NCBI GenBank assembly: GCA_965153455.1
Contig: OZ234493.1
Location: 31,672,213-31,736,212, forward strand
Direction of reading: 5' to 3'
DNA length: 64,000 nucleotides
From: Sphagnum compactum
Lineage: Eukaryota
This document shows, one piece after another, positions 23,001 to 64,000 of the stretch (position 1 is the first letter of the stretch; the number at the start of each line of letters is the position of its first letter). The position numbers and the translations under genes were made by a program. The notes under the pieces are model-generated. The model did no database searches. It had not been told where the DNA came from and was given only the letters and a program-made list of their open reading frames with translations.

Positions 23001-23455
23001 AAGAAGCTTACACAAACATGATGAACCATGATGAACCTCCAACCTCATGGCAGATTGTGGATTTGTGCTTCAAACTCTGAAACCCATTCTACTTCCACAA
23101 AGCATCAGCGCTTTGAAGAATGAACAATCTGCAGCTTATTGCAAGAATTGAGAGAACTGTGCGAATTTGCACCTGGATAAAGAAACTCTGCCTACTATTG
23201 GATCCACTCTGAACAAAACTAGAAATGCTCACATGGACTACAGAAATCTGCTACTCAAGAGTAGCAGATGCAAACTGGAAATGTTCAAGAGGACTCTGCT
23301 GCATTTGGGCTGACACCCACACCAGAGAAGTGTTTCTGTATCAAACTACAAAACATTAAACACTGTTTACAAGATGACAAAAGCTTGACAGACAAAACAC
23401 CACAAATCACAGACAGCCCCTCATGGGTGGGGTGTCTGTCTGATGAGAGATCAGA

Positions 23456-24595
23456 TCAGACTGTAGCATCAAAAGAGGGTTCGAAAATAGTCCAAGAATG
23501 GCCAAGCCTGGAAGGAGCAGGCAACCAATGCCAAGAATTTTCCTGCATATTGTAAGCTACAACTCGATCAATGACATCGTCAGATATGTAGAGAAACCCA
23601 TTTCTTCCGACGCAACAAAAATCCTCAAAGCTGATCTTCTTACGAAGCTCTTTCACCATAGGCTTTGGCAGCCTTAGGGTTTCAATCCACTCTCCCTTCT
23701 TCCTATCAAGCTCCCAGATACCAATGCTCTTGGGTGCTGGATAGCAGTTCATGCGCCACAACAGTTTATCCGTGCCCCCTACAAGAAGCAAGCTGCCGTT
23801 CCTTTCCACCAGATGAGGCCCAACTACACCTGCAGGTATTCGCCATCTCGTCTTGCTCCAGACTCCTGTACGCAGGTTGAATCCCACGGCAAAGTAGTAT
23901 CCTCTGAACCCTAGCCAATAGATCCATCCGTTGCATAGCACACCGGCTTTCGCAGCGAAGTCTGAACAACAAAACCTTCGCGGAAGCTGGCTTTTTGTCG
24001 TCCAGCTGCCTACGGCAGAATCGTAAAACCTTGTGGTTCGATCTCGATGTCGCGACAGATTACTCGCCATAACGATCTGGTAACTGTTTGTGCTAGCGTT
24101 GTGCACCATAGCTGTGTATGTTGGCTCAACTCCAAAAGCTTCAGGTAGGAGACTTACTGCATTGAAGAGCCTCCGCAAGGGATTCACAACGTATAATGCC
24201 TTGGCAACCGCTCCAATCCCTGAGAGCTTCACCAGAAGCAAGCCGCCAGCCGATGCCACAAGCTCGAATGATCCTTTATTCCGATCCAAGCAAATACACG
24301 GCAAATCGAACCACCTGTTCATCGCAGGATCGTAGGCGGGAAACGAAACGCATTCCGTATTGCAAGAACTCGGTCCTCTGGAGAGGAACCATGGATGCAG
24401 ATTCGTCGTGCTGATCTTCCTCCGAAGCTCCAGGAATTTCCGTGAGCCGATCCAAGCATTCCATGACTTGCAAACGCATCGCATGCGCAAGAGACTCCCT
24501 ACTGGTACATGGAGCAACATCTTCTCCAGTAGCTCCTTGGGAAGCTGACTCCATATCCCTGGATTCATCGTGGATTCGATGCAACAGAACGACAT
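23456..24595 (-). CDS. F-box protein with C-terminal kelch/F-box-associated beta-propeller, intronless, 379 aa
   Basis: N-terminal F-box WSQLPKELLEKMLLHVPVGSLLRMRCVCKSWN, followed by AYDPAMNRW, LVASAGGLLLV, VVNPL, YDSAVGSW, GVLCNGWIYWL, HLVERNGSLLLVGG, IGIWEL and terminal FEPSF, typical of plant F-box/kelch proteins. Confidence 0.93.
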   Translation of the reverse strand: MSFCCIESTMNPGIWSQLPKELLEKMLLHVPVGSLLRMRCVCKSWNAWIGSRKFLELRRKISTTNLHPWFLSRGPSSCNTECVSFPAYDPAMNRWFDLPCICLDRNKGSFELVASAGGLLLVKLSGIGAVAKALYVVNPLRRLFNAVSLLPEAFGVEPTYTAMVHNASTNSYQIVMASNLSRHRDRTTRFYDSAVGSWTTKSQLPRRFCCSDFAAKAGVLCNGWIYWLGFRGYYFAVGFNLRTGVWSKTRWRIPAGVVGPHLVERNGSLLLVGGTDKLLWRMNCYPAPKSIGIWELDRKKGEWIETLRLPKPMVKELRKKISFEDFCCVGRNGFLYISDDVIDRVVAYNMQENSWHWLPAPSRLGHSWTIFEPSFDATV

Positions 24596-25275
24596 CTTGC
24601 AAGCAAATCATCAGAGAAAAAAATGTGACCTCGTATTCTAGACCGAAACTTTCCAGAGGAAAGTTTCACTAGCCTTCTTCAAGACAAAGAGCAAGCCAGG
24701 TCGACCGCACAAACCAAAATTTTTAAAAACCAAAAAAAAAAACAAAAAAAAACAAGAAAAACTCCAATCCAAACAGAACTCTAGCTATTAAAACAACAGG
24801 AAATTCCAGATGTGAGAGCCTGCCATCGTTCTGCGGCGAGACAAATCAGAATTCCCAGGAACACTAGAAAAAAGAAGAAAAAACATATTCAGCTCCATGA
24901 GCTTTGCCAAACCAAAGCGCAGAGATTTTTCTGAAACAGAGAAAGAAAGAAGAGTCCCCTTAAGAGTTTACGAAATAATCTAATATAATTCCCGTGTATT
25001 GTGGCTGTACATCGAAAGGCGACGCAGATGCGCAGCATATCCAAACACACACACACCGCGAGCGACAGAAGAGCTCCCCTTGTGTATGCGAGAGAAGAGC
25101 GAAAGGAGAGAGACGACGGGTCACCCGGTATCTCCTCGGTCCCTCCCTCTCATTCACCGGGTGCGAGACTCTCGCCCCTTCGATGGTTGGCGGCCTGGAT
25201 CGTCCCCACGTACTCCTAACTACGTCCACATGGCACAGTTACCGTCGTGGTTAGGTCACACCGCGGTAAGTTAAC

Positions 25276-39587: not shown

Positions 39588-41940
39588 ATGGAAGTTGTGA
39601 AAATGTTCACCCGAGTGAGCAGAACATATGGATCCACCTTCATTGCCCTGCTATTCTTAAGCTACTTCACTCAGGGATTGAGGTGCTTCCCATGGCTTGC
39701 CATCACCTACCACTTCAAAGACTACCTGAAGGTAAAAAAAAATGCTGCAAAATCTCCCCCCCTTTGCTGTTTCTTGCTGGTTGTTTTCAAGTACATATCA
39801 AATCAAGAAATGAAGCAAATCTTTGCTTGTTGACAAAGTTACCTCACAATGTCTCTACCAGGGAGGAGTCTTGTCTACAACAGACAGTGTCCCAGTCATA
39901 ATTCTCTTTCGAGTTTTTCTTGCAAAATGGTGCAGCAGTTGGGGATTTAGAATCAAGTACAGAATTTGACAGAGAAACTCTCATCATGTTTCATGGCCTT
40001 CTATGTTGCCACAGTTCAGATCAGCTTTCTGACATCCTAGTGTGTAGCTCAATCAAATTCCTGGGGTTGTTGATAAATGAGATGGATTTCTTTTCAAATG
40101 AATTCCTCTGCTTTGAACATGTGAAGTTCCTCTGTGGGTTTAGGGTTGATAAAGCATCACATTTAGAACCCAAATTCCATGTTTTGAAATTTTTGGATTG
40201 ATTTTGCACGTGAGCTTTGGATTTGTGAACTTGGGAGTTTTGGCGGTGGTGTAGGTGGATCCAGGAACTATGCAGTTTTTGATGGCATCGGCTGGTTTAC
40301 CTGCAATTGCGAAACCAATTTATGGTATAATCTCGGATTCTGTCTACATTCGAGGAGCTCATCGACTCCCATATCTCATCATTGCTAGTAAGGAGACCCT
40401 TACCAGACTTTGATATTGTGAGAATTAGCCAAAAGTTTTGTTTGTCACCTAGTGACAAATCCTAATGCAGCAGCACTTTTTGTCAAAGTAATGCAGCAGT
40501 TGTTTTGCAGTCCTGTTGGTTGTTGCTTATGATTGCCCAAAACTTGCAGATCTACTACAAGCACTGGGGTGGGGGGCAATAGCAATGCACCGCGGTGTCT
40601 CATCATCAGTGCTTGCACTGACTGCCTTCCTCACTGTCACTAATTTGGGGGGAGCAATTTCAGAGGTCATGAATGATGCAATGGTGGTTGAAGCTGGGAA
40701 GAACAAGAAAGGTGGTCAGCAAGGTAGGTTTACCAGTGTTGTCGGTTTAGGATCAGAATCAAGGGTCTTTGCTGTAAGCTTGAGTTTTCAGGATTGAAAG
40801 GTTTTGCAGGATTTTTTTTCTCCATTCTGTTCCAGGCTTCTTGTGATAGAAGTTTGAGTTTTGTTAAAATTCAGGAATTCACACTAAACTCATTCTGGGT
40901 TGTCTGGAACTCCCCAATTATGTGCATGAAGAATCTGGAAGGTGCTTGTGTATGATTTAACATTTTGAGTAAAAACGTTTCATGCAGGTGAGTTGCAGTC
41001 AATCGCATGGCTGGCAATGGCATCCGGTGCCATTGTTGGGAACTTGACGGCAGGTTACGCCATGACGATACTCACCCCTCAGGCAATGCTTACAATCTTT
41101 GTTGCACTCATACTTGTGCAGGTTCTTCTGGCTCTCTTTATTGATGAACGATCTTTTGGTCTAACACCACCCAAGCGGGATACTGATGAAAGTCAAGATC
41201 TCAAAAGCATTGATGGAAAGCAGAGGGGAATTTCAGCCATACGCCAACAGATCTCTATCCTAGCAAGTTTGCTTCGAAAGCCTGAGATTATGAGACCCAT
41301 GTTGTGGTTCCTTTCCTCGTACGCAGTGATTCCGATTCTAGGAAGCTCTGTGTTTTATTTCCAAACACAGAATTTGAAACTAAGTGCATCAGTAATTGGA
41401 CTGGCAAAAGTGGTTGGCCAGTTGGGGCTTTTGATCGGTAGCACACTTTACAACAAATCACTCAAAGGCGTCCCAATCCGCAGATTGTTTGCGATTGTCC
41501 AAACACTTCTTGCAGTTTGCATGCTTTCGGACATAGTTCTTGTGAAGCGGTGGAATCTTGAGCTTGGAATTCCAGATAAGTGGTTTCTGCTTGGTGCATC
41601 AGCATTTGTGGAGGCTATTGCACAGTTCAAAAACCTTCCCTTTGTGGTGCTCTTGGCCGAGCTCTGTCCACGGGGGAGTGAGGGCTCTCTCTTCTCCTTT
41701 TTTGCATCAGCACAGTGTATTGCTGGGTTAATGAGTGGGTACCTTGGAGTCGCATTGGCATCATACCTCCACATATCCACCGAGGACTTCAGTGCATTGC
41801 CACTTGGAATCCTCATCCAGGCATTATGCACTTTGCTTCCTGTTTTTGCTATTACCTTCATTGCCAGGCAACCGAAGAAGATCACTGACAGTCCTCAGCA
41901 GGTTCCAGCCACCGACCTTGATAGCAAAAAAGAGCTCTAA
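39588..41940 (+). CDS. BT1-family folate/biopterin transporter (MFS), 4 exons, 467 aa
   Basis: Exons 39588-39731, 40255-40387, 40550-40723, 40988-41940 (1404 nt, phase-consistent). Motifs: YFTQGLRCFPWLAITYHFKDYLKVDPG, KPIYGIISDSVYIRGAHRLPYL, EVMNDAMVVE, GELQS, LAELCPRGSEGSLFSFF; many TM helices. Confidence 0.93.
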
Positions 41941-42850: not shown

Positions 42851-44839
42851 TCAAGAACTCAGTGCAGGCCTCTTCAAGTTGGCTTTCAGCCTCTCAACTG
42901 CAGTTCTCAGTGTTTCCTCGTCCTTGCAAAATGCAAACCTCACCAAGTCCTTGCCATTCTTTGGATCAATGTAAAACGTACTAGGAGGAATGGCAGCCAC
43001 CCCCACATCCTCAATCAAATGCTTACAAAATGCCACATCATCTTCATACCCAAATGCTCTATGATCTACCATCACAAAGTAAGTGCCCTCAGGTTCAAAG
43101 ACCTTGAATCCAACACTCTTCAAACCCTCAACAAGGATATCCTTCTTGGTGCGGTAGCCACCAATTAACTCCTGGTAGAAAGAATCAGGTGCTGACAGTG
43201 CAGCAACAGCTCCCCACTGAAATGGTGCTGATGTTGAGAAAGTCAAGTAAGAATGGGCCTGACGAAGCCCCCAAGTAAGATGAGGGGGTGCCACTGCCCA
43301 CCCAATTTTCCACCCCGTCAGAGAGAAAGTTTTCCCCAATGAATTCATTGTGACTGTCCTCTCATACATTCCATCCAAGGAAGCTATTGACACATGCTCC
43401 CCTGTGAAAACAAGCTTGTTGTAAACCTCATCCATAAATGCAAGGGCGTCATGTTTCTTACACAAGGAAGCAATGAGCTCTAATTCCTTCCGAGAGAATA
43501 CTTTACCAGTTGGGTTATGAGGGGTATTCACTAAAATTGCTCGTGTCTTATTTGAAAAAGCAGTGCGAAGCTCCATTTCTGGGACTGCAAAATCTGGAGG
43601 CCGTAAAGTGACAGTTTTGACTGTTGCATCTGCCATAGCCAAAGTGGCTAAATAAGAGTCATAGAAGGGTTCAAACAGGATAACCTCGTCCCCTGGATTG
43701 ATGAGACCTATAATGGTGGCTGCAATTGCCTCAGTGCAACCAGATGTGACGGTGACTTCTGTTTCGGAGTTGACAGTTATCCCACTTTCCTTCTTGAAAC
43801 TTTGTGCAATAGCATAATTAAGCTCAGGAATTCCAAAGCCACGTGCATATTGGTTCATTCCATCCTGAATGGCACGGATTGCAGCATCCTTCACAAAATC
43901 CGGACCATCAAAATTTGGAAACCCTTGGCCCAAATTCACCGCCTTATGCTTCAAAGCAAGGATACTGATCTGTGTAAAAATTGTGGTCTTGAACTGCTCC
44001 AGACGCTTTGACACCTGTTCGGCCAAACCAGATGAGCCATAAAGTATGTGTAGTGGAGCACTTATGTATGTGCTACATAATTGTTCAAGGGGTTGACATT
44101 CTGAACAAACTATGCACATAGTTGGAAATTACACACTAGTTACACACTAAATATTGGATGCTCAGATCTGGAAGGTAGTCTGCCACCACACTTGTCTTCC
44201 CCTCAGTCTTGCAAAGGGAACAATTTTGATCCAGATACACATATCTATAACATTGCAGAGAAAACTCCACAACAACACTTGTAAGGTAACCTGACATCAC
44301 CATCACCTTCATTTATAAGCAGCAGTGATGATGAGCTGCCATGAATCCATTGCTGACTTGATCAGCTCCTGACCAACTGACCGACAGTGAGTGCAGAGAT
44401 AAGTATATATAACAATCTGCCCGATATTGTCAGGAAAACGGTTATACAAACATCTGCATCCCTGAGTTTCTGTCATATTTCCGGATACATAATGCACCAT
44501 CAAGCCATTCCATATGGATATGCACTTTCTGGGCATCCTCAGCTATTTCTAAAACGTTGACCAAACCCAAAAACCCAGGTAGATTGTTCCTGGGAATTTT
44601 GTTCTGCAGCTTTTGAGAAAACGACGAGTATCAGCTTCAAAAGGCAGGTGCTCTTCGAAGATGCAAAACCCTGGGAAGCAAGAAAAAAAACATATAAAAG
44701 CCAAACCCTGAGAGATACGAGAAGACGCAACTGTGTGGTCAGGAAAAATAACCTGGAGTGCAGGAGAAGCGTCCACAGGAACAGGGGACGAAGATGGTTT
44801 GGGAACTCCATTGTCCGTTGCGGTCGACACAGAGGCCAT
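42851..44839 (-). CDS. PLP-dependent aminotransferase class I/II (kynurenine/glutamine/methionine transaminase-like), 2 exons, 416 aa from first AUG
   Basis: Exon 1 44839-44753 (MASVSTATDNGVPKPSSSPVPVDASPALQ|gttatt); exon 2 44014-42851 (VSKRLEQFKTTIFTQ...INLGQGFPNFDGP...NTPHNPTGKVF...DEVY...NSLGKTFSLTGWKIGW with PLP lysine...VRFAFCK). Confidence 0.95.
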
Positions 44840-47810: not shown

Positions 47811-49464
47811 AACCTTAGTCAATATTGAAAAGCACATGCTAATTTATCTTTTCGTATCCATGTAGTTAGTGGTGGGTAGGTGAAAAGAGTGAAATAATTA
47901 TGAAATGTTTTACATAATTGTCATATGGATGATCATATATAATTATTAAGTTGACAATCATTATTAATGTTCTCATATTTTGTGAGGATCATCAATTTTG
48001 GTTCTCTCATAATATTTTAGGAATTGAACCAGTTCTCACAAATATAAGACTGGTTGGTTCTCAAAGGTGATTCTCACAAGTCAGTTATCAAAAGGTCAAT
48101 TATTATATAAAATGATTTTATTTTTTAGTTATAATATTTTTTATTAAAAAAAAGAACCAAGTTACAAATAAGAAAAATTATATTTCCAAAAAAAATTTAA
48201 AAATCAACAACAAGAAAAACTGGACAACACAATCGAAAAAATTAAAGTAACACAACAAAAAAAAAAAAGTTGACCATCTACAAGAAAAGCTAAAGCCCAA
48301 ATAATAGCAAAAGGAGCCAAGCAACAACCCAAACAACAATCTTTAAAAAAACTCTCAAACACACTATATTCTTTATTTAATATACTACCTAATTGCACAC
48401 AAACACAATCTCAATTGCAAATGTTATATGCTAGATACAAGGATATCGCAAGGGATATTTACAATATCCTCTGTGTTAGATGGATAGGTGGATGTGTACA
48501 TAGCTCAATATCACACATCCTGGTCAGTGGTTTCTCCAAAGGGATTCAATATCTATCCATGAAGCAAGGTAGTTTTGTTTGTTTTTGTTTTGTACTTATA
48601 AGATCCACCGAACAGGGATGCTTCAGATCGTGCTATTGGTCTCTTTGGAAACCTCTTGAGGAGGACTCGGGGTGCATCAGCCACGTTTCATGGTGTTTGG
48701 ACTTGTGGTGCAAAAGTTTTTGAAATATTGAATGATTTCTTCACTGAAAATTAAATTAAATTAAATTGTAACTGAAATTTTCGGAGGAATTGGAATGTGC
48801 CTTTGGTGTTGTTGGAAAGATCTTGATGAGCAGGATTTTAATGGATTTTTATTTGGTCAGATTTGGATTCAAAATGTGGGAGGTAATTGATTTTTAAGCG
48901 ATTTGTGTTGCTGAAAATTCAAATAAATTCCAAAAAAACCAGGTTTTGGAAGGAAAAATCAGTTGAGAACGCAGTAACACTGGCTGGAGTGAACCAGCAG
49001 GCACCAATGCACCTGTTGAGGATGAGCCCATTGAAGCCGTTTTGGGGATGAACCAAAAATCCATCCTCCTTGCCCGCAAGTATTTTTTTTTTTTCACCTC
49101 TTTTCTGCCCCAAAATTTTCCCCCTCCTACCTCCCCCCTCCTACATACCACCTCCTACCTCTCACTCCATCGCCAGAGCTCGAAAGCCGTCGAATGGGAT
49201 GGGAGGCTGGAGCTGGATCACCAGAGCTCTAGAGCCGTCGAGCAGGAGGGGAGGCTAGAGCTGCCGTTGTTTCAGCCGGGCTACCACTGCAGCTGCCATT
49301 GTTGGAGCCGAAGAGCTGTCATTGTTGGAGCCAGGGAGCTGTCGTTGTTGGAGCTAGAGCCCCTCAAGCGAGACCCACGCGGGACCCAGAGCGGGAACTT
49401 CAGGTAAGCTCCCTCCCTCCCTCCCTTCTTTGTTTTGTTGCAACATCTTCTTCTTTTTTCTTGC

Positions 49465-50160
49465 AACGCAGAAGGCGACGGCAGCAACATTGCCGTCGCC
49501 TTCTTCTTTTTGTTTTGCTGCAGCGCAACGAAGAAGGCTTCTTCTTCTTCTTGTTTCTTCTTCCAGCGCAGAAGGCGACGGCAACAACGGCAACAACAAC
49601 GTTGCCGTCGCCTTCTTTTCGTTCTACTCCAATGCAGAAGGCAACCGCAGCGTTGTTGTTGTCGCCTACTTCATTTTGTTTTTCTTCTTTTTTCTTGCAG
49701 TGCAGAAGGCGACGGCAACTGCCGTCGCCTTCTTTTTGTGTTTTGCTGCAGCGTAGTGAAGAAGGCAACGGTAGCAACTACCATCACCTTTATTTTTTCT
49801 TGCTGCAGCATAGAAGGCGACGGCAACAACTGTTGTCGTCGCCTTCTTTTTTTCGTTTTGCTACTACGTAGAAGGCGATGGCAACATTGTTGCCATCGCC
49901 TTTTGTTTTTTCTTTCTTTGCAGCGCAAAGAAGAAAGCAACGGCAACAAAGCTACCGTTGCCTTCTTCTTCTTTTTTCGTTGTAATGCAGAAGGCGTGTA
50001 GCGCAGGAGGCGACGACAACAACTTTGTATTGAAGAAGAAGAAGACGACAGCTTTTATCACCTTCTTTGATGGCTTTGCTGCCAGGAAATGGCGACCTTC
50101 GCCTTTTTTTGGTGGTTTTGCTGCGAAGAAGGTGACGGTAGCAATGTCGTCACCTTCCTG
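49465..50160. repeat. Array of ~9 palindromic units AGAAGGCGACGGCA(n)TGCCGTCGCCTTCT inside the MULE
   Basis: Units near 49470, 49570, 49636, 49704, 49760, 49812, 49870, 49931 and 50126, separated by T/C-rich spacers. They lie between a donor (cag|gtaagc, 49403/49404) and an acceptor (tttag| at 50255). Confidence 0.85.
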
Positions 50161-50269
50161 TATGGTGGCGGTTTTATTTTATTTTCTTTGTTGGTGCTAA
50201 TGGTTTAGTTCATTAGGATTAACAATTAATAGTGAAATGGTGGTTTTCTATTTAGGGTTGACGGTTGTA

Positions 50270-51865
50270 ATGGCTAAGGGAAGGAGATTGAAGAAAAGTG
50301 GTGGTGGTGAGTTGGAAGTCCAGAAGCAAAATGTTGTTGCGTCAGATGAGGCAATTGTTGGGCCAAATGTTGCTACAAGAGATGATGCAATTGTTGAGGC
50401 AAATGTTTTTGTATCAGATGCAGCAATTTTTGAGCAAAATGTTGTTGCATCAGATGCAACAATTGTTTAGCAAAATGTTGCTACATAAGATGCGACAATT
50501 GCTTAGCAAAATGTTGTTGCATCGGATGCGGCAATTACTGAGCAAAATTTTGTTGCATCAGATAAAGCAATTGCTCAGCAAAATGTTGCTGCATCAGATA
50601 AAGCAATTGTTCAGCAAAATGTTGCTGCATCAGATGACGCAATTGGTGACCAAAATGGTGCTCTATCATAATTGAAACACAAGGATGATAGTTTGTAATA
50701 TAGATTGTTCTAGAATTTATGGACATTAGATTAAATACAGATTAAAAAAATTGTACAAGTTTTTTGAAATTTAATTATATCCGCACCTTCCATCATTTGT
50801 TGGAAGGTGCGGGATTTTTTTTGTCAAAATTTTTCTATTGCAATACCTGAAAACAGTTCATGTTTATAGGAGTCGTGTGTGATTATATGATTTTATGTTT
50901 TGTAATACCTGCATTCTGTTTTTTGAACTCTCACTTTTTGGTTTAGGTCCGAAACTTGAAACTGACCAGGCTTCTCAGCCACTAGCACCCCCTTGTCCAC
51001 CTAATTTGGCTCAGAAGGACAAAGAATGGACGAAGGTCGGGTCGAAATGGAAATGTAAAGTTAGCACTTACATTGTCGCATATTGTGCCAAATGGTTGTT
51101 GACCAAGCATTTGAAGGAGGTGCATGGCTTGGTGGCAAAAAAGGCCAAACCTGGGAGGCCTTCAACTTCTGCAAGAGGTCCTCGACATCAAGACCATGCC
51201 AAAATGAATGCTCGAATCTTGGGAAATGCCATGGTTGTGCAAAGGCGGAATGATCAAAAGGTTGTTAGTCGCGCTCGTGCCAAAGCATAGTGTGAATGGA
51301 ATAACCTGGTAGCTGTTGCAAAACAGTGTCCACCATTCCCAAAAGCAGCTTTGGTCAAATTAGCTTCAAAGTAATTGTTGAAGGTGTTAGCCTTAATGCT
51401 TGGGGCGTGGGCAGTGTGCCTCGAGATGCAACATCAAGGATGGAGAAGGATGAATATTTACAAGGGATGATTTGATCCACCCGTTGTGTGTATGCACGAC
51501 AATTGAAGATGGCATGGGATGTCAAAAATTGGGATCGAGGGTCTAGTAAAACAAGTCGGACAAAACAGTTGGCAGATGTTTTGGATTTTCATGAATTTAG
51601 AATGATTCATGAAAGGTAAGAAATAATAATAATCAATATTTTTTTTTATTATTGTATTTCATCCAAGGTGTGTTAGGGTTTAATTTGGTGGTTTTTGGGT
51701 GTTTATACGGTTCAAGACAAAACAAAGGAAGAGTTTGTTGCAAATGCAGTTCAGGTTGAGATGCGACGCCGCCATTTTTACACTGCTCGTCATGCAGCAA
51801 AGGCTGCAAATGCAGCAGCTGTATACCGAGCTAAACACGGGATTGTAGATACTAATATGGTTAAG
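50270..51865 (+). pseudogene. MULE accessory gene (disrupted): N-terminal 12-aa acidic repeat, C2H2-type zinc finger, GRP motif, unknown helical C-terminus
   Basis: Exon 50270-50657: MAKGRRLKKSGGGELEVQK + ~9.5x EQNVVASDAAIV. Phase-1 GT-AG intron, then exon 50947-51615: WKCKVST[Y]IVAYCAKWLLTKHLKEVH..AKPGRPS..HQDHAKMNARI..; then exon ~51710-51865: VQDKTKEEFVANAVQVEMRRRHFYTARHAAKAANAAAVYRAKHG. Several TAG/TAA/TGA stops and a frameshift near 51390. Confidence 0.75.
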
Positions 51866-52319
51866 GTTTCACTTTATATAATTAGTTAGGATTTTTAACC
51901 CTTTTTTTTTGACTACCCAATTTTTGAACTTCGATCCTTTTATATGTTATAGAGAACCAACGTTTTTTTTTCATTGGGTTCTTTAGTAATTTTTGATGCA
52001 CCCATTTTTGTACATCTTTTATCAATATAATAATATCTTCTACTCACACTTGTTTGATGGGTATATGGTTAATCATATATGTTTTCTTTGTCATAATTTT
52101 TTTAGTACTTGAGATGTAAAAATCAAACCTTAAATAGGCCCATATGAATAGGTAACATTAATTTGTCTAGGGTCTACAAAGATCAAAATGAACATTGTGC
52201 AATATTTACATCTAATATAATAGGATTCACATCACTTAAAGACTTTTAAAACAATACACACATTTTAAACATATAATACCTACATCATTTTCTATTATAA
52301 ATTCCATAAGGTCATTTTC

Positions 52320-53045
52320 AAATATGCAATACCCGCATATAAGTCCTAAAATAACCGTTGGCATTTTGCATTCATTGCAATACCCGCATATAAGTCCTAA
52401 AATAGTCGCTGGCATTTTGCATTCCTTGCAATACCCGCATATGGGCCACAAATATTCGCTGGCATTCTACATTCGTTGCAATACCCACATATGGGTCCCA
52501 TAGTAGTCGCTGGGTTCTTTTACATTCCTTGCAATACCCGCATATAGGTTCCATAATAGTCGCTGGTTTTTTAGATCTCTTGCAATACCTGAATATAGGA
52601 CCTATAATAGTTGTTGGTTTTTTACATTCATTGCAAAACTTACATTTTGTCATAAAATTAATTCAGAATAATAATTAATTTAGGTATATAAAAAGACATA
52701 TTTTGGGTACCCATACCACTTATTAGTTATTTTGAAATGACGTTACATGTGGGTATTGCATTCAGGGTTTAGGGTCTTCACATAAAGTTTGCCTCAACCA
52801 CCTATGGATTATTTCAATATGAACTTGCATGTAGGTATTGCATCTAGGCCTTGGTCTTCATTCAAAGGCGCACCCAAATTACATATTGGGTATTTCAAAG
52901 TGACCTTACATGTGGGTATTACATTTAAGGTTGCCCTTTCATTGTAGGTTTTACGTTATTCACGTATGGGTTATTTTGAAATGAACTTGAATATGGCTAT
53001 TGCATTTAGGGTTAAGGTTTCATATAATTTTGCAATATCCACACA
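52320..53045. repeat. TTGCAATACC-motif tandem arrays (left cluster): ~51-bp x6 forward, then ~80-bp-period reverse units
   Basis: gcaatacc at ~52326, 52377, 52428, 52477, 52531 and 52582; then gg(t/c)tatt(g/a)cat units near 52752, 52834, 52915 and 52996. Confidence 0.85.
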
Positions 53046-54764
53046 CGTACTTACTTTCACCATTTACAAATTTAGCCTTAATTTTTTTAATAATTAAATA
53101 AAATTTGTAACAAAACACAAAAGAAGGTATGTTTTTTACCATTTGTTAATCTCCAAGCTGATTTCTTTCAATTTCTTTTAAAATGTGTATTGCATTGTTT
53201 TGCATATAAAATTCCCCTTATAATGCATCGTAGATTTATTTTATTTACTATGAACTTGTAAAAAAAATGTTAATTAATTTAGGGTTTCCCAAACTCTAAA
53301 TTTGAATCATATTCCAATAGTATATACTTATAACAATTATATGGAAAAATGTGCTTTCTCTTTAATAAATTCTTTTAGTTCAAATTTAAATGTTATAATA
53401 CAATAAAGATTAGACATTAAACTGTCATAAATGCTTATTAGGCTTACGTGGCCTAGGCTAGTATATTACCTATATAACTAGTATGTTTACTTAATAAACT
53501 CAACCACCTTCAATACCTACATAGACCATCTAAAATATTAACCTAGAAGGCCTACACTAATGAATAAACTACATAATAGGCCTATATTACGTAGGTAGCC
53601 TATTAGGTAGTTAATTAGGTTACTTAACAAATAGTTTACTAACCTATTACTCATGTTTAGGTTAGGTTGTTTAGTTTGGTCAATGTTGAAACTTTAGTCA
53701 ATCTGACAACCTTAGGTTTGAACTTTTGTTGAAGCTAGTAATTTGTCAAGGCTATAGATTCTTAGTTGTTTTTTTATGAACACTATTGTGTTTTTTGGAT
53801 AGTCAAGTCATTTTTCAACTTCTGAAGGTGTCGAAAACATTACATAACAACTTGGCCCTCACAAAACTTTTAAAATCCACATAAACTCTGGCATGACGTC
53901 TAAGAGCTTATGAACAATTTTCATAGCTAGCTATTAATTTTTTGGAATTTTTAAATTTGCATTGAAAACAAAGTTCATTAAAAAATAATTGCAATATACG
54001 TAACCATAGGTGTTTATATATATATACTATAAATAAATATGAAAATATTATATGTATTGAAATGGATCAACAGTATAATTCCATAATATCATTACTTATA
54101 TATTATGTGGTATAAAATATAAAATATTTTTGACCCACTATATGATTATTTTAACCAAAAACTTATTTACTATATATCAAAAAAATACAAAATAAAATTT
54201 CAATCAAACATAGGATTAATATGTGGGAGAGATCATTTTTATTATTATGTGAAACAGGAAAAAAAAACTAAAAAATTATGTGCTTTGATTTTTTTTTAAA
54301 CATAGTTTAAAATCTTATTAAATTAGAGACTTTATATTTATGTTTTTTGAAATGAGTATACAACTTTAAAAGGGGAAAAAATATATATGAACATCTTTGA
54401 AGAAATTTTAAGCTTGAACTTTTTATTTTTTGATCTCGACAAACTTTGTATTGTATTCACAGTTGGGTTTTCACATAAGGTTTGTTTCTTACCTTTGTGT
54501 GATAACTTCAACTTAATTTTCCCAATCTTTTTGAAAAAGATATAGAATGAGATTGTATTGTTTCACATATGTCTAAACCCAAAAAATTCCCCCCCAATTT
54601 AATATAAAATATTTTTGATAATTAACGAATTATCAACAAATTTTGTCATATAATTAAATAATTAATATACCATTATTTCAGATAATTTAAATGATTAATT
54701 ATCAAGAATTAGATAATCATTTATTTATTTAAAATAATTAACTAATCATTTGGCTTAACTTGGA

Positions 54765-55262
54765 GTGACCCAAAATGTAGGTATTACATTTAGGGTAGGA
54801 TCTTCATTTAAAGAGGCTTAAACCCCACATGCGTACTTTCAAAGTGACCCAAAATGCAAGTATTGCATTTAGGGTAGGATCTTCGTAGAAAGAGGCTTAA
54901 ACCCCACATGCGTACTTTCGAAGTGGCCCAAAATGCAGGTATTGCATTTAGGGTAGGGTTATTTCAAAATGACTTTGCATGTGCATATTGTGTTTAGGGC
55001 TAGGTCTTCACTTAAGGGTATCCAAACCATTTAGATGGGTTTTTTTGAAGCGTGGATATTGCATTTAGGCTTGTTTTTTCATTTAAACTTGCAATACCCG
55101 AACTTATACTTACCTTTACCAACTAGATTTTTGGGGTTTCATTGCAATACCTACATCTGTACTTACTTTTACCAACTGGAATTTTGGGGCATAATTGCAA
55201 TACTTGCACTTGTACTTACTTTTACTAACTGGGATTTTGGGGCCTAGTTACAATACTTGCAT
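54765..55262. repeat. TTGCAATACC-motif tandem arrays (right cluster): ~80-bp reverse units then ~52-bp forward units
   Basis: gtgacccaaaatg(t/c)a(g/a)gtatt(a/g)catttagggtagg x3 (54765-54960); tt(g/a)caatac x4 at ~55089, 55142, 55195 and 55248. Confidence 0.85.
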
Positions 55263-55481
55263 TTAACACTAATATTATCATTATCCTTGTGTTTTTGCAT
55301 TTCACACTTTTTGTGCTTATTACTTGGAAACAATAATAACCTTTGTGCCATATTAGACTTCATGTGTGTGTTGAATACATGATGTTCAAAGAATTTGGAC
55401 ATGGTTTCCTCCATACAAAATTGATTCTAAAACAAAATTCTTAGTGCCAATGGCTACAATCTTGATTAGTAATTGAAACAT

Positions 55482-58176
55482 TTATTCGTGACATCGTTTA
55501 GTACGTACATTTGTGTGATTAAGCATTGTTTCATGCCAATCTTTGAGCCATTTGACATTATTTCCCAATCCATCTTCTATACGACATAACACCAATCTTG
55601 GGTGTAAAATGGCATTTGCCTTTGTGAGGCGTATGTTACGAATATTACATGCCAATACTCTCATGTGTGAAGTGGCATGTTCACAAAGTGTCACATCGCC
55701 TTCTTTACGTTCATTTGTGATCTCTTGCATTGTAGTGACCAATTGTGCAAGAGCCCTTTCCATTGGGGTTGATGAATTTATTGTGTCATTAGACCCTACA
55801 ATGGCACCCATAGGGAGATCATTTTGCTCCATGTTCATGAGCCCATCAAATTCCATGATCCCATCATCACCTTAAGATGATCATTTTCGTCATCATCATT
55901 GGACTCCATATCATCTGGAATATGTCGTGGGTCTGCAAACATGTGACCCAACCCTCCACGATGTGATCCATACCATGTTCCACAGTAATGAATGATATCC
56001 TCTTGAGAAATGTCTATGCATGTGAGAATGACCACAATTTGGTGTTTACACATGTTCCCTCGCAATGCCCATTCGCATGTGCAACAAAACATTTCGGTGA
56101 ATGGGAATTTCACCGTGTAAATAACATTGGGAAGGCGTTGGCTCCATACGGCCCAAGCTCCATCATTTTCAAGGGTTGGTTGGTACACATGGGTGAGTGG
56201 AATAAGGGCTGTCTTTTCCACACTTCATGTAATAATGGCCTCCATAACCTTGTTTTTTATGAAACCCTTTTTTTTCATTTCCAATGTGTGCATGTAGTGG
56301 CGTGTAATGGTTGTTGTTAATCACCACACCAACCAGTCAATCCTACACCCTCTAAGGCCTTTTGTGTCAAGAGCAAGCCAACGTTTCAATGCACCATGAT
56401 ATGATTCAATGCTCGCTTGGGTGTCTTGGTTGGAATGGAGCACTCTTCGAACACCCACCATCCATAATTCTGCAAACATAAACACAATACATAAGGATGA
56501 ATAACATTATACAAAGTAATTTTGAATGTTAAACCATGAGAAATATTATCAATTACCAAACTGATGGTAATAAGTCCAGAAATAATTTGTCCACACATCA
56601 CCAGGCCTATGTTTATGAAAGCTTTCTCTCACAGCAACCCTCCCACGCTCTTTGAAGTCATCAATTGTTTCTCCATGATTGATGGACATGTACATCACAT
56701 CATGAAGGTCTTGGAGGATTCCACCCTGCACTTCCACATCTTTGATTTTTTCAGTACCACGTAAGCGCCATGCTTTGAGAACATGCCAACAACAAAGGTA
56801 GATGGGAACCTTGTCCATACCCCATACGACCCTAGTAAGGACACATATGCAATAAAATCTCCATGAATGGATGGGGTTAGTACAACATAAAATGCATTTG
56901 AAGTAATCAAGAATTTTATGAAAGATATTAAAAAACATTTAAGGAGATAAACACAAAGTCGATACTAGGTATGAAACTAACCGTAATGCCTTCAATTCTT
57001 GAGGTGCATCATCAACGAAAAAACATGATGGTTTCCAATGTGGCATGTGTGATAACATCTTCTCTTTTAATGGTTTCAACCATTCGATCAAATCTTGAAC
57101 TGTTTGCCTACTTGTAATGATCCAAGTTAAAGGGACACCCGTGCGATGATCATCAAACCCCATCAAGGTGAATAGATGGAATTTCATGTCATTTGTGCCA
57201 AATGTGGCATCCATATAAATGGCACCATTATGACCATATGATAGCATGGACTCACGTTGAGTTGGTGTTTGAATACCTATGGTGAATGGGACTTGAGTCC
57301 CGTTGATTTCACTAACATTTTGGAAAAAGAACATATCTTCCGGATGTTGGAGAGCCCAAGACTGACTTGAAATTGCAGGATTGGTGTGTAAATGCCAACT
57401 CCTTTTCTTATGTTTCCAATCCAAATATGCAATGTCTTGAAGCCGAATGAAATCATCTCGTGTCATGCTTTGACCCGCATTCACACGTTCCCACCAAATT
57501 GCTTTATGTTTGTCATATATTTGTTTGGTCGTGTAACTTAAGCTTAGTTGGGCCCATATGTGGTCCTTCAATGCTTGTGACATGCATGGAGCATAACGAG
57601 ACATAGGAGAAATGGACTCCGGGTCATGCTCACCATGTGCGAATGACCCATCAATTCGTGTATGGGCCTTATGATAAATTGTGATCTCAGCCACATTAGG
57701 TCGTGTGTATAAACGTTTGATTGATAATGACGCTAGGCATCCTCGTTTAATAGATCGAATGTGGGTTGAATTTTCTTGATAGTCCTCTGGTCCATATCCG
57801 CATTGATACCTAGACCAAAAAACTTTCAAAACGTAAATGATTACATCTTTGGTATATGAATTAAAGAAATTAAAAAGGTTAATGCCATAAATGTTTACCA
57901 TGTATGCCCGAGGTGGTTTTTGATAGTTGGTTGCTTGACATCCGTTTGGCTTGGAAAGTTTTTGTAAACATTCCATTCCACAGGGGTGCTTGTATCCCCT
58001 CGTTCACCTTCCAAGAATTCCGAGATGCGAGCATATGGAACATAAGCAAATTGAATGGTCACTTTATTTTGCCCTCCATGGCGTATCCCAGACGTCCACA
58101 CCAAATCTTTGTTTGAGAAAGGGGACTTGGTGGGGTTTTGGACATGAATGGAATGGGACTTTGGAACCCTTCCCAT
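55482..58176 (-). pseudogene. MULE transposase with N-terminal Cys/His domain, DDE core and SWIM finger (4 exons; 2 nonsense mutations + frameshift)
   Basis: Exons 58176-57899, 57809-56982, 56831-56557 and 56469-55482 join in phase. Motifs: WYQCGYGPED..KRGC..YHKAH, YMDATFGTN (D1), FFVDDAPQE (D2), LCCWHV (CxxH), DTQASIESYH (E), CTCEWALRGNMCKH (SWIM). In-frame TGA at 56323-56321 and 56227-56225; frameshift near 55870. Confidence 0.9.
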
Positions 58177-58494
58177 GATTGAAGGAAGTAGGACAAATTC
58201 CTGCACCAAGAGAATTTATAATTCTATAAACATTCATCATTGAACAAAAACCCAAAATGCAATACACACATGGCTCCTTTAAAATCAATGTTGTGACTTG
58301 GAATTCCCATTCCAACACCCATATCATGATATAAAATACCTATTGTTCCAATGTACATAATGTACAATACTTGCATTATGAACCCATATACTAAAACAAA
58401 CTTTAGCAATACCCACATTGAGCTATTAAACCTCCCATCATTGAAAATGTTCACATATGCAATACCGGATTGTACTTTAAACCCATAATGTCTG

Positions 58495-59743
58495 AAAACC
58501 CCATGTAGCAATACCCATATAATGATAATGATAATTAATGCACATTGTTTGAGAGGTGCAAAATGCACTACCTGCCTTAAGCCATAAAACCCACACTGGT
58601 TGTGGGTAGTCAATGCATTATTCGCATATGGGTATGAAAAAAAAACTACAAAGAGATATTGAATATGAAATATCCGTGTAAAGGTATAAAACCTTTATTT
58701 ATGGTTGTATACTTAATGAAACTTGACGCCCTTTCTATATCCAATAACTACGAAATGAAAAGAGGTTGAATTGTGAAAATATAAACAAAAAAACAAAAGA
58801 AGTAACATGAGACAAATGTATACCTTTAAGAATAAAAGATGACAACGTTCCACCAAAGTTTATAGTCCTAATTAAAAATGCAACCCTAAAAAATCATAAC
58901 TCGTACAAAAATGGGTTAGAAAACATTAAATTCTAGCAACTATGAACATATGGAAACAAAGGAGATTCATAATTATGGTATAGATCTAAACAAGTGAAAA
59001 GATCAAAAATCAATACAATGAGCAAAATTTAGAGTATAAACCTTAGGTTCTGAAATATATGAACCAAATTCCTATACACTAAATAATAAAGCATAACCCT
59101 AAAAATCCAAATGATATTTTGTAAAACCCCATGTAGCAATACCCACATAATGATAATTAATGCACATTGTTTGAGAGGTGCAAAATGCAATACCTGCTTC
59201 AAGCCATAAAACACACACTGGTTGTGGGTAGTCAATGCATTATTTGCATATGGGTATGAAAAAAAAACTACAAAGAGATATTGAATACGAAATATCTGTG
59301 TAAAAGTATAAAACCTTTATTTATGGTTGTATACTTCATGAAACTTGATGCCCTTTCTATATCCAATAACTAGGAAATGAAAAGAGGTTGAATTGTGAAA
59401 ATATAAACAAAAAAACAAAAGAAGTAACAAGAGACAAATGCATACCTTTAGGAATAAAAGATGATAACGTTCCACCAAAGTTTGTAGTCCCAATTGAAAA
59501 CACAACCCTAAAAAATCATAATTCATACAAAAATGGGTTAGAAAATATTAAACTCTAGCAACTATGGAACATATGGAAACAAAAGAAATTCATAATTATG
59601 GTATAGATCTAAACAAGTGAAAAGATCAAAAACCAATATAATGAGCAAAATTTAGAGTATAAACCTTAAGTTCTGAAATATGTGAACCAAATTCTTATCC
59701 ACTAAATAATAAAGCATAACTCTAAAAATCCAAATGATATTTT
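58495..59743. repeat. ~625-bp tandem duplication upstream of the transposase
   Basis: aaaaccccatgtagcaataccca...aaaaatccaaatgatattttg occurs at ~58495-59121 and ~59123-59743 with scattered substitutions. Confidence 0.9.
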
Positions 59744-61358
59744 GACATAAGCCTTATTACAACCCTAATAAAAAAAAGTCTTAGTGATATATGCCCTGAA
59801 CCCAAAAAACTATAAAAACTATACAAATTATATAATGCAAAATACGTTAATCTTTAAAAACAATCAAATAAATTTCATACAAAACCAAAAGAGAAGATAT
59901 GTCTTTTGCCTTTGTGTGATCTCTCCAACTTAAATTTTTCCACTCTTTTTGAAGAAGATATAGAATGCTATTGTATTACTTCACATATGTGTAAACCCTA
60001 AAAATTTCCCCCCAAATTTAGCCTACTTTAGATTAATTACTATACATTTGTGAAAAATTTATTAATTGACTTATGTGTCTCAGCCCTAAACTTAAACCAT
60101 AATCCAATAGTACATACTTATAATAATTACATGAAAAGAGTATTGTAATGTCCATTCATAAATTAGGTAAACAAAATTTAGTAGGATTGAAGGGGGGGGT
60201 GGGGGTGGAAAAAGTGAGTAGGTAGTTAGCTAGGTGTTTGGCTATGTAAAAAACATAGATAGATAGGTAGTTAGGTAGATAAGCAAGTTAGTAATAAGAA
60301 ACAAGTTACTTTATCAAGGTGATTAGGTTTGTAAAATACTTATGTCAATAGGGTGGTTGTGTATGTAGGGAGGTAGGTCAATAGGGTAGGTAGTTAGTAT
60401 AGTGGTTAAGTTAGTAGGGTACATAATTAATAGGGTAGCTAGGTTAGTAGGGTAGGTGGTTAGTACAATAGCTAGGTCAATAGGATAATTAGTTATTAGG
60501 GTAGCTCTGTCAATAGGGGATAATAAATAAGGTACCAAGGTTGGTGCAGTACTTATGAGGGTAGAAAAGTGAGCAGGGTAGCTATGTGTGAGGTCAGGTC
60601 CAGGGAAAAACGGCCAAGAACCAAAAAAAAAAGTACAATGGTCAGCAGCAAAAAGAAATGGATTGTGATGAACCCCATCCGGCGCCGAATGAAAAAACGC
60701 AAGGCATCCAATGGATAGAACGGCCAACTGGTGCATTGGTGGCTGCTAGTTCACTCTGACCGGTAACACTTGGGCCAACAGCACAGGCCACACTAGTTGG
60801 TAACTATTTTGGAGTCTTGGGATGGTGAAACAGTTGGCCGTGTAGGTGACATATGGTATTGTAGTTTGACATTAGCTTAATATAATTTGCAACTCAAATG
60901 TCAAACCATGATATATATATATATATATAACATAAATTTCAAATTGCAAATGAAATTGTGACAGATGACAAATAATATAAAAGTTTATTTATGCAAAAGA
61001 TGAGTGTTTAAGAAGTTTAATGTGTGGCATAATTTCATGGACTTAGAATTAATGAATGATAATTTATGTTCAATATAAATGAAAAAGATGAATAATTCAT
61101 CCATTCTCCTTTCAAATATTGAAGAGGTTGTGCGAGGAGGAGCTTTGAGCTCATTCTCCTTTTTCATATCTTCATGTTATTAATTTATCATTGAGCATTA
61201 TAATAAGACTTTTGCATGTAATGAATGTAATATGTAAAAAATTTATTTATTGTTATGATTGTGAAGGCATCCCACAAAGGAAAGGTAATATGAATTTAGC
61301 AAGAGAGTGATCTCCATAAGGCCCAGGTCTTTAGGCATGATGTGTGTGATGAGCACAT

Positions 61359-61394: not shown

Positions 61395-62465
61395 GGGAGC
61401 TAGCTCATCACATGTGTCCAAAGACCTTGCTTTATGGGGATCACAAAAGAAACTCGCATAAGTTTTTTCCTTTGAATTTATAATATAATAATTCATGAAT
61501 GGAGCTTTAGTTTGCACCAATAATCCCAGTGGACGTTTCCAGCCTCCCGAGGGCGCCATTCCAGACCAGAACGGCAAACGGAATGGAGCCGGTAGCTGGT
61601 CGTTTCCGAGAACGGTGATGGCGGTGTCTGATTCCTCTTCTTCCTCGGTTTGGTCTTTTGGTACGTGAATCCCTCTTCCTCGCCTCGGATCGGATCGCAT
61701 TTTGTTTTTTTTTCAAAAATTCTCTGCGGCAATTCCTACTTCAATTCTCTTGTTGTGATCCGGATGAAACCTGTGATCTCTACTGTTTGTTTGTTTGTTT
61801 TTTTTCTCGATTCCTTCTTCGCAGGAAAATTGAGGGTGAATTTGTGTACAATAGCGAGCTCCTGTTTCTTTTCCCTTCTTGTTCGGGTTGTTGTCGTTGT
61901 CGTTGCGAAAGGAGGAGAAGGACAACGCCCTGACACGCGGCAGAAAAGCAGTAGGACTTCTTGATGTTGCAGGTGATGATGGTAGAGAGCGAGAAAGAGG
62001 AAAGTGTCTAGCTTTCTCGAGAAGCAAAATCCGAGATGCGAAAGAGTGCGAACACTTGCACTCGGGATTTGAGATGCGAATTTGAGATTGAAGAATTTTG
62101 CGGGAAGAGGAGGATCGATCTTTCTTTGTTTCTTTTTTCTGAGGAGATCAGTGAGATATCGAAGGTGCTGTTACCAGAATCAAAGGATGATGCCTTCTTG
62201 AACGTCATTGGCGCTCTTTGCAATGCGATCTTTGCAATCCTTCGTTGTTCTCCAGAATATTGTTACCATTTCCGTGCCGCTGCATCGTTGCCTCCTCCTC
62301 CTCCTCCTCCTGCCTTTGGTTTGTTTTTCCATGACGACGACGACGATCCGATGCGCGGATCTGGAAAGCCGGATCCGGACAGAAAGTCAGGAGTCTTGAC
62401 CAGAGGCGCGCCTGCAATGTTGCGCTCTTGGAATTGGAGCTGAATTCGCGGTGAGAAGCTTGGAG

Positions 62466-64000
62466 ATGGCATGGAGAGGCCCTGCGAATAACAACCTCGG
62501 AGACGATCTCTGGAGCCTGTCTTCGTTGCTGTTTGCATCTGTAGACCTGCTCTTGGTTTCCTTAGTGTTCCTGAGCGCTGTATTCACTTTCTTCACCTCA
62601 AGCTTCATACGAATATCTGGCCTGCACATTCCTTGCTCATGCTTTGCTGCTCGTCACCGTCTTAAGCACAGACGACATCGGGAGATGATGACAGCAGTAG
62701 CAGCCCGGCGAAGCAAGTCATCGGTCAACAATAGTAGCGGCAACCAAAGCGGCGGAAGTCGGCAGCAATCCTCTGCGGGAAGAAAAATGGAAGAAGTCTC
62801 CTCCAATGCAAGTTCTGGACTTGACAACAACAGAGAGCTTGAAGAGAATGATGAGAATGAACGCCTATTGAAAGCTCTTCGAGATGAGCGTGAGGCGCAA
62901 GCTGCGTTGTATCACGAGTTGGAGAAGGAGAGAAACGCTGCAGCAACGGCTGCAAACGAAGCGATGGCAATGATAACGCGTCTTCAAGAAGAGAAGGCAC
63001 TTGTGCAGATGGAAGCGCGGCAATTCCAGCGGATGGTGGAGGAGAAGACGGCTTACGATCAAGAAGCGATGGAGATTCTCAAGGAAGTCCTTGCAAGAAG
63101 GGAGGAGGAGAAAAATCAGCTTGAAGACGAGATGAGGAAGTGCAAAACAAAGCTACTTGGGAGGGACCAAGCTACAGTTCCAGAAAGAAGAAGAAATGAG
63201 ACAATGCAGCCAGGGTGCAGCAGCAGAGATACTGAAGACAGTGAACTTTTCCCAATCACAACTGCTGGTGTAACAACCAAGAGGTCGACTGCAAGAGCAG
63301 CAGCAGCAGCTAGGGAGACCGAGAAACCACAAGAGGCAGACTCGGTTATCAGCCTCAAGAAGAAATGGGACTCTCAGGGTACTACCGAAGAAGAAGTATT
63401 CCCTGATCAGAACAAAGGTAAGGAACCCCCTCTTCCTCCAGCAAGTTTTTCAGAACGAGAAATAGAAGAGAAGAGGCTGTCAGTGTTAGAGTATGTGTGG
63501 AAATTCGAGGAGCAATTGCATCATCATCAGCAGGGAGGTAGACAACCTCCTTCAGCTCCAACTGGTAGTAGACCTAAAAGTGCTGGTGATGAGCAAAGAT
63601 CTGAAGATGAAAGGAGAAGAACCATGTGCCACCACTCAGAATCATCACCACAGAAAGCTGCAACAGTTGTCTCTGGCAAACTAGAGAAAGAGGAAAATCC
63701 GGGCGAAGATGGTGAAACATGCAGGTCGATGGGTTTAGGGTTCCTAGCAGAAGCTGTTCATGGGGAGGAAGATGATCTGTTCGTGCAGGATATTTATGAA
63801 GTGCATAATGCATCTCATCATGAGCCTCCTAGTGTTGTCATGCAAGACACAGAGGAGGACTGTTGGGGTTGGGACTCCAGGATAAGACATCAATCAGACT
63901 TGGATCGACCAGGGAAGCTCGACCTTTTGATCTTGCATGAGGAGGAAACACGAGATAGTACCAGAGAAGATACCCACTGTCATCACCGGAGTCAAAATGT
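62466..64000 (+). CDS. GTD-binding (Zein-binding/DUF593) myosin-binding protein (MyoB-like), 3'-partial
   Basis: ATG 62466 opens a frame with no stop to the window end. N-terminal TM segment WSLSSLLFASVDLLLVSLVFLSAVFTFFTSSFIRISGLHIPCSC; GTD-binding coil LYHELEKERNAAATAANEAMAMITRLQEEKALVQMEARQFQRMVEEKTAYDQEA; later VQDIYEV. Absent from the ORF track because it has no stop. Confidence 0.92.
   Translation, partial: MAWRGPANNNLGDDLWSLSSLLFASVDLLLVSLVFLSAVFTFFTSSFIRISGLHIPCSCFAARHRLKHRRHREMMTAVAARRSKSSVNNSSGNQSGGSRQQSSAGRKMEEVSSNASSGLDNNRELEENDENERLLKALRDEREAQAALYHELEKERNAAATAANEAMAMITRLQEEKALVQMEARQFQRMVEEKTAYDQEAMEILKEVLARREEEKNQLEDEMRKCKTKLLGRDQATVPERRRNETMQPGCSSRDTEDSELFPITTAGVTTKRSTARAAAAARETEKPQEADSVISLKKKWDSQGTTEEEVFPDQNKGKEPPLPPASFSEREIEEKRLSVLEYVWKFEEQLHHHQQGGRQPPSAPTGSRPKSAGDEQRSEDERRRTMCHHSESSPQKAATVVSGKLEKEENPGEDGETCRSMGLGFLAEAVHGEEDDLFVQDIYEVHNASHHEPPSVVMQDTEEDCWGWDSRIRHQSDLDRPGKLDLLILHEEETRDSTREDTHCHHRSQN

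Follow-up and report, generated by a model that had tools for sequence, protein, structure and literature searches.

The dealings of a DNA transposon with its host are decided by accessory genes, of which to our knowledge only a handful are understood: MURB, VANC, TnpA and the Myb-like protein of Harbinger. In MuDR of maize, the genes mudrA and mudrB are arranged in a convergent layout. TnpA of En/Spm, a CACTA element, and the Myb-like ORF1 of PIF/Harbinger are accessory DNA-binding proteins, each of which recognises motifs repeated within the element that encodes it. For Mutator-like elements (MULEs), PMC6446971 lists mudrB, mutB, vanB/vanC and an antisense PMD as extra open reading frames (ORFs), and names mudrA and mudrB with a role in integration. 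PMC13547354 describes accessory transposon proteins as lineage-specific and fast-evolving, names TnpA as an accessory factor, likens VANC to MAIN and calls VANC dicot-specific. Here we describe a MULE of the bryophyte Sphagnum compactum that carries, beside its transposase, a gene for a protein with one C2H2 zinc finger. It lies in a stretch of 64,000 nucleotides (GenBank assembly GCA_965153455.1, contig OZ234493.1, positions 31,672,213 to 31,736,212; hereafter the window, numbered from its first letter). The zinc-finger gene is very probably a transposon-borne accessory gene, and the copy in the window is the decayed second gene of a two-gene autonomous Mutator-like family of Sphagnum.

The element, its second gene and the family

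The whole element, of 11,780 bp, spans 48982-60761 and is recognised by terminal inverted repeats (TIRs), a target site duplication (TSD) and a MULE/SWIM transposase. The left TIR (48982-49018, plus strand), which starts GGCTGGAGTGAACCAGCAGG, pairs with the right TIR (60725-60761, minus strand) as inverted arms of 32 nt with 91% complementarity, and the terminus GGCTGGAGTGAA is common to 21 related loci, described below. The TSD that borders the element is 9 bp long (AGTAACACT at 48973-48981 and GGTAACACT at 60762-60770, identical at 8 of 9 positions), within the range of 8-11 bp given for MULEs in PMC6446971. Homology to the 21 loci stops at 48981-48985 on the left and at 60761-60764 on the right, marking the ends of the element, and joints from 48972 to 60762 in RNA and in contigs omit the element as a whole.

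The main coding part of the transposase was placed at 55482-58199 on the minus strand from Pfam matches, ORFs and RNA contigs. The MULE domain PF10551 is matched with an E value of 1e-7 and a score of 32.7 bits, above its cut-off of 27.6, and a ZSWIM RNaseH-like domain with 1.6e-6, together with a weak SWIM match (E 0.013; 15.4 against a cut-off of 19.6). Introns at 56470-56556, 57807-57895 and 58200-58822 are omitted by RNA-library contigs and have the CT..AC ends of a minus-strand gene. An in-frame stop at 56939-56941 sits within 56822-57806, a stretch continuous in one RNA contig, and the transposase of the window copy is therefore broken.

Converging on the transposase from 1.29 kb inside the left end, the zinc-finger gene occupies 50270-51864 of the plus strand in three exons, a model built from three-frame translation and from alignment with relatives at 80 loci. 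Exon 1 (50270-50657) holds the ATG, the start MAKGRRLKK and a run of acidic 12-residue repeats, encoded by a 36-bp tandem repeat of 9.4 copies (50325-50662; unit ~NVxASDxAIxEQ; 82% matches in Tandem Repeats Finder). Intron 1 (50658-50946, GT..AG) contains two of the element motifs discussed below, at 50839 and 50901. Exon 2 (50947-51615) encodes, besides the C2H2 finger (51054-51126) and the sequence KPGRPST, both a basic helix and a helical region; intron 2 (51616-51708) begins with the donor GT; and exon 3 (51709-51864) encodes the helical C terminus, which in relatives ends ...DTDMG-stop. The splice junctions are in phase: a Gly codon takes a single base from exon 1, and two bases of an Arg codon close exon 2. 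An annotated gene model of S. balticum, P0029, contains the junction of exons 1 and 2, and P0052 of S. jensenii supports that of exons 2 and 3; the S. jensenii models P0051 and P0052 both terminate within exon 3. P0051 also fuses the repeat region straight to KKSKPGRPST, omitting the finger and most of the helical region; it represents another isoform or else a gene model drawn from a damaged copy. In frame +2 relative to the ATG, the 36-bp repeat of the window copy stays open over 127 codons (50292-50675, plus strand; KMLLHQMRQLLS units), whereas the annotated frame is interrupted by three stops; the open frame is probably a by-product of the repeat itself. The window holds no second copy of the gene.

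An earlier note on this DNA, made from the letters alone, had described a spliced gene inside the TIRs. Its plus-strand orientation, its course toward the transposase and its in-phase junctions stand, whereas the open spliced ORF does not. The window copy has six in-frame stops (50468 TAG, 50486 TAA, 50504 TAG, 51288 TAG, 51372 TAA and 51473 TGA) and 1-bp deletions near 51391 in exon 2 and near 51859 in exon 3, where the frame is shifted. The acceptor of intron 2 (51707-51708) reads AC in place of the AG found in most relatives, and a zinc ligand has changed from Cys to Tyr at 51069-51071. In view of these stops, deletions, acceptor loss and changed ligand, the window copy is a pseudogene and can make no protein.

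The family to which this relic belongs is large, and its matches go well beyond what chance would give. In a word-indexed protein search, 52 of 179 candidate proteins matched the exon-2 reading at E<=0.01, mostly as open frames of 200-250 amino acids with 74-84% identity and none with a Pfam domain; the named matches come from S. balticum and S. jensenii (79-90% identity). A profile search yielded 785 protein clusters from Sphagnum and peat metagenomes, and an exhaustive HMMER search 369 representatives at E<=0.001. Diverged subfamilies, at ~30-37% identity, retain the finger and the motifs K-x-x-[RH]-P-S-T, QDHAxMNA and WGVGS. Hundreds of "hypothetical proteins" of Sphagnum and of peat metagenomes are fragments of this transposon gene, which matters for annotation. 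No sequencing run in the index contained half or more of the sampled words.

The link between gene and element was followed in JGI metagenome contigs, in which 344 of 596 pattern matches were confirmed by tblastn and 80 loci were kept for alignment. All 80 align collinearly with the gene's surroundings in the window. The left terminus GGCTGGAGTGAA is reached in 21 loci, with the gene at the same place in each; their flanking sequences are of 19 different kinds, so that they represent separate insertions. Every locus that extends more than 4.7 kb downstream (3 of 3) has the convergent transposase ~4.6 kb away. One locus, L062, is an internal-deletion derivative of 6,168 bp (L062:1224-7391) with both ends and a perfect 9-bp TSD (GGTGGGCAG, 9 of 9 identical); this non-autonomous form retains the zinc-finger gene and is without the transposase. 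The proposal that the second gene is encoded by the element is thus borne out by its fixed position in many independent copies. A second deletion form, L079 (~5316), has a joint from about 55225-55228 to 59761-59771, which connects the 53-bp array described below to the region upstream of the transposase; the same joint occurs in contigs of two RNA-library (metatranscriptome) runs.

Intact members of the family encode a protein of ~400 residues in four parts. The first, at the N terminus, is a motif both basic and conserved, M-[AG]-[RK]-[GR]-RRL-[RK]-K, with 5-6 Lys or Arg among the first 12 residues, which is probably a nuclear targeting signal. The second is the array of acidic 12-residue repeats, whose copy number differs among loci; exon 1 of open copies encodes 89-194 residues and, after residue 20, consists of Asp and Glu to 17% and of Lys and Arg to 2%. 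A single C2H2 finger followed by a basic helix makes up the third part and a helical C-terminal region the fourth. The finger of the family, C-x4-C-x12-H-x4-H, has the spacing of the C2H2 class (C-x2-4-C-x12-H-x3-5-H). Its ligands are retained, in order, at 78, 67, 80 and 78 of the 80 loci, and the block CAKWLLTKHLKEVHG, in the helix of the finger, is the most conserved stretch of all (0.97). Sub-threshold Pfam matches include Zap1_zf1 in 2 of 18 members (E 2.2e-4) and zf-C2H2 in the window exon (E 0.24). In an AF2 model from 51 sequences the finger is predicted, at a pLDDT of only 64-68, as a hairpin of two strands (43-48 and 51-56) and a helix (58-83), followed by a long helix (99-144) above 90 and by further helices.

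No described family accounts for the protein. In neither the window exons nor the 18 members was any Pfam family matched above its cut-off; a search of PDB sequences with the family profile gave one chance row (E 0.6), Foldseek against the PDB nothing matching (best E 2.1), and the ESM Atlas vague C2H2 leads only, the best at 0.89 and below the lead level of 0.9. Most of what the earlier note had read from the window copy holds: the MAKGRRLKK start at 50270, the 12-residue repeat, the finger as C-x4-Y-x12-H-x4-H with Tyr in place of a Cys kept in 67 of 80 loci, and a C terminus that is predicted to be helical and matches neither Pfam nor the PDB. It was right, too, that KPGRPS follows the finger. 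Its comparison of the GRP core to an AT-hook is not upheld, for KPGRPST becomes KPKHPST, KLERPST or KSRHPST in diverged subfamilies, with KHP, ERP or RHP at the core, and Pfam AT_hook is not matched. An internal duplication of the exon-2 helix was also considered and rejected, as 43% of shuffles score equally high.

Although individual copies are damaged, the gene can be read from the family as a whole. The majority sequence of exons 2 and 3 is open for 274 codons and ends in a stop, GT/AG splice sites are retained in most loci and the ATG in 67 of 68. Exon 1 is open to its donor in 15 of 68 loci and exon 2 intact in 5 of 70. Such a preponderance of dead copies is typical of old transposon families, and selection was therefore sought on the branches that link the copies. 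Exons 2-3 of 59 sequences (58 loci and the window copy, with <60 gap columns) were reduced to 55 by removal of four near-duplicates. Nei-Gojobori distances for 1,485 pairs were the input to non-negative least squares, which fitted branch lengths in dN and in dS to a maximum-likelihood topology, with 100 codon bootstraps; the method is a rough one. In frame, dN/dS was 0.36 (0.28-0.46) on internal and 0.65 (0.54-0.78) on terminal branches; the corresponding out-of-frame values were 0.77 and 0.42 in frame +1, and 0.79 and 0.56 in frame +2. Internal-branch dN/dS is low in the true frame only, and amino-acid changes were therefore filtered by purifying selection while the family spread. A ratio of about 1 across copies, which the earlier note had named as evidence against a conserved ORF, is not what was found.

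Transcription was followed in a polyA RNA-seq run with the same species label. Reads cover exons 2-3 at a depth of 4.5-9.7, with the first mate always on the minus strand, and the transposase at 1.7-3.5, with the first mate always on the plus strand. Under the usual stranded protocol, each gene is accordingly transcribed in sense, toward the other. One RNA contig (record 4) fits the window from exactly 51709, the first base of exon 3, and is preceded by 29 unplaced letters.

Motif arrays and candidate roles of the protein

A candidate target for the protein is present within the element. The motif TGCAATACYYGCA occurs 18 times in the window, always within the element. The related pattern TGCAATACY is found 16 times against 1.2 expected, with 16 of 16 inside the element, and the 13-mer TGCAATACYYGMA, with at most one mismatch, 18 times against 0.76 expected, all between 50839 and 59198. 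Motif sites are spread over intron 1, three arrays in the interval that separates the genes' 3' ends, and the 5' portion, itself duplicated, of the transposase region. The first array (52325-52636, plus strand) consists of tandem 51-bp units, each with TGCAATACCCGCA; the other two (together 54764-55261) have units of 79 and 53 bp. The units of the three arrays are unrelated and have just the TGCAATACYYGCA core in common. Over the 80 loci the motif reaches 0.96 per kb within elements, compared with 0.02 per kb in 48 kb of flanks past the recognised end. The regions that adjoin the TIRs carry other repeats, of 58-bp units at 49.4-50.0 kb and of 16/33-bp units at 60.37-60.52 kb.

We tentatively suggest, at somewhat less than an even chance, that the protein binds the motif arrays of its own element and acts as an activator or anti-silencer. 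The basic N terminus would take the protein to the nucleus, where the finger and the basic helix would recognise TGCAATACYYGCA motifs. Tandem arrays of these motifs are confined to non-coding parts of the element, namely the intron of the gene itself, the region between the genes and the 5' part of the transposase. The acidic repeats would then serve as an activation or anti-silencing module, keeping cognate copies transcribed.

Several observations weigh against this proposal or against the gene on which it depends. A lone C2H2 finger reads only a few bases, zf-C2H2 itself is matched below the Pfam cut-off in just 3 of 18 members (best E 0.0063), and confidence in the AF2 model as a whole is low (mean pLDDT 63.7). 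Transposase sites or plain satellites would explain the arrays just as well. Across 131 near-full units from 33 sources, conservation is highest in the core TTGCAATACCCGCATAT (0.93, with 0.84 elsewhere), a weak and partly circular result, as the profile was built from the window's own units. The three loci that bear the transposase may be one insertion sampled thrice. Exons 2 and 3 are both intact in just 2 of 59 loci (L039, and L060 with an in-frame 18-nt deletion), and pairwise dN/dS in frame, 0.48, lies little below the out-of-frame values of 0.55 and 0.67, a contrast too weak to decide, so that pairwise ratios alone were set aside as a test of selection. The expression data have gaps as well. 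Only 7 of 456 placed reads are at least 99% alike and most are 85-95%, so that the RNA comes from other copies. Exon 1 is almost without reads, which may be due to repeats too divergent for placement. A further RNA contig (record 3) runs unspliced through the donor of intron 2 to 51680, joints for the gene's own introns are absent from the 15 of 70 joints listed, and splicing of intron 1 is supported by annotated gene models only (P0029).

An alternative that we consider possible, if rather doubtful, is that the protein is a transposition cofactor, aiding excision or reinsertion by, for example, recruiting the transposase to the element or bridging DNA. Parallels would be MURB of maize MuDR, TnpA of En/Spm and the Myb-like protein of PIF/Harbinger. 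The convergent layout of two genes is that of MuDR, a DNA-binding finger would suit the recruitment of a transposase, and the selection and expression data fit a cofactor as well as they fit an activator. The motif arrays, however, are central, and it is other repeats that adjoin the TIRs; nor would such a role have need of an acidic repeat array. Activators have this architecture, in which acidic repeats are joined to a DNA-binding domain, and it is for this reason, together with the central rather than subterminal position of the arrays, that we prefer an activator or anti-silencer. That the deletion derivative L062 retains the gene without the transposase fits either role. The location of the arrays, both in the interval between the converging genes and within the transposase's 5' part, would also suit a regulator of self-restraint that binds them and represses the transposase or the element, thereby limiting damage to the host, and sequence-specific binders can repress as well as activate. 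Acidic repeats are nevertheless more typical of activators, and no repression motif was seen, although no systematic search for one was made; we regard self-restraint as improbable.

Slighter still is the probability that the gene serves the element in no way, being a host gene or gene fragment captured long ago in the manner of a Pack-MULE. Capture of host sequence is frequent in MULEs according to PMC6446971, and the protein is without a transposon-specific domain. Against a passenger stand the completeness of the gene, with its start, two introns and stop, its fixed place in every copy seen, and the presence of the element's own transposase. Selection on internal branches would likewise be unexpected in a useless passenger. 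The earlier note had named a captured host fragment as the outcome that would overturn its proposal, and no obvious capture was seen: among the matches listed no host parent was found, a weak absence given that no plant genome was searched, and the only ones with a name are gene models of this family, entered for Sphagnum as "unnamed protein product". Longer fused forms were searched for and none was found, which is weak evidence, and nothing else in the window matches the family. With a transposase present, a complete gene and no such parent among the matches listed, the element was not classed as a Pack-MULE. It might finally be asked whether there is a gene at all, or just frames in repetitive DNA that are open by chance or through an artefact of annotation; stops abound in the window copy, and most copies are broken. 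We consider this highly improbable: a majority frame of 274 codons is retained with its ATG, splice sites and stop, selection is frame-specific, polyA RNA is strand-specific, and diverged subfamilies retain the same motifs.

Other features of the element and its surroundings

The left subterminal region (49400-50000) is composed of G+C-rich units of ~58 bp with internal palindromes (GAAGGCGACGGCAACA...TGTTGCCATCGCCTTC), which have no relation to the TGCAATAC motif and are possible transposase sites. The right subterminal region (60366-60518) has repeats of 16, 33 and 66 bp (TAGGGTAGCTAGGTTAA), unlike those of the left end. Within the 5' part of the transposase region lies a tandem duplication of ~628 bp (58495-59121 and 59123-59744, 93.5% identity), the first copy of which is overlapped by the RNA-supported intron 58200-58822.

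The element is inserted within sequence that is itself repeated and transcribed (flanks 48500-48981 and 60762-61085). Joints from 48958, 48967 or 48972 to 60762-60766, in RNA and contigs, omit the whole element, and read depth is maximal on these flanks. The host genes beside the element encode a BT1-family transporter (40969-41940, plus strand, E 2.6e-76), a class I/II aminotransferase in a single open frame of 425 codons (42851-44128, minus strand, E 2.4e-66) and a Zein-binding domain protein (62400-63998, plus strand, E 8.5e-32). When the family proteins were compared with the rest of the window, the only match was a weak one at 23445-23540 (plus strand, E 0.007-0.058). It was judged to be due to chance, lying antisense to a minus-strand frame of 383 codons (23456-24607) that has the look of an F-box/kelch-type protein.

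Relation to described accessory proteins

MuDR of maize is, like the Sphagnum element, a MULE with two convergent genes, the second of which is restricted to a narrow group of hosts. The Sphagnum protein differs in its C2H2 finger and acidic repeats, and no maize-named protein was among the matches listed. TnpA and the ORF1 of Harbinger differ in superfamily and in DNA-binding fold, and their sites are subterminal whereas the Sphagnum arrays are central. MutB of the yeast MULE Mutyl is a second MULE ORF to which a DNA-binding role is ascribed in PMC6446971; it comes from another kingdom and is likened here by description only, and the text and table of that source disagree on its orientation. 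No paper on a Sphagnum MULE or on this protein was found, in a search that left out Repbase, Dfam and the supplements of the Sphagnum genome papers, which may list the element.

The closest comparison is with VANC of the Arabidopsis VANDAL MULEs (Hiun/VANDAL21). VANC is likewise an accessory protein encoded beside the transposase, and it likewise combines conserved domains with variable regions of tandem peptide repeats. VANC carries DUF1985 and DUF287, however, neither of which was matched in 18 members of the Sphagnum family at E<=0.1 or in the window exons; PMD was equally unmatched in this Pfam search. With no domain of the VANC or MURB type found, the independent origin put forward in the earlier note is plausible. 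Motif binding and hypomethylation have been shown for VANC, whereas the Sphagnum element is known for its motif arrays alone. The parallel is close in logic and, the proteins being unrelated, would be one of convergence, not membership. Carried further, the analogy suggests a rather unlikely but attractive possibility, namely that a bryophyte MULE independently evolved a VANC-like system, in which a C2H2 finger and expandable acidic repeats would recognise TGCAATACYYGCA arrays multiplied within the element's own non-coding DNA and activate or demethylate cognate copies only, the repeats of the protein and the arrays of the DNA co-evolving.

We rate the Sphagnum protein as a new family in a known class of roles. 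It would add to the few accessory proteins described a family that is well defined, abundant and expressed, that comes from a non-seed plant and for which a candidate DNA target is plain to see. Convergent sequence-specific self-recognition, possibly with anti-silencing as in VANC, could in this way become testable outside the angiosperms.

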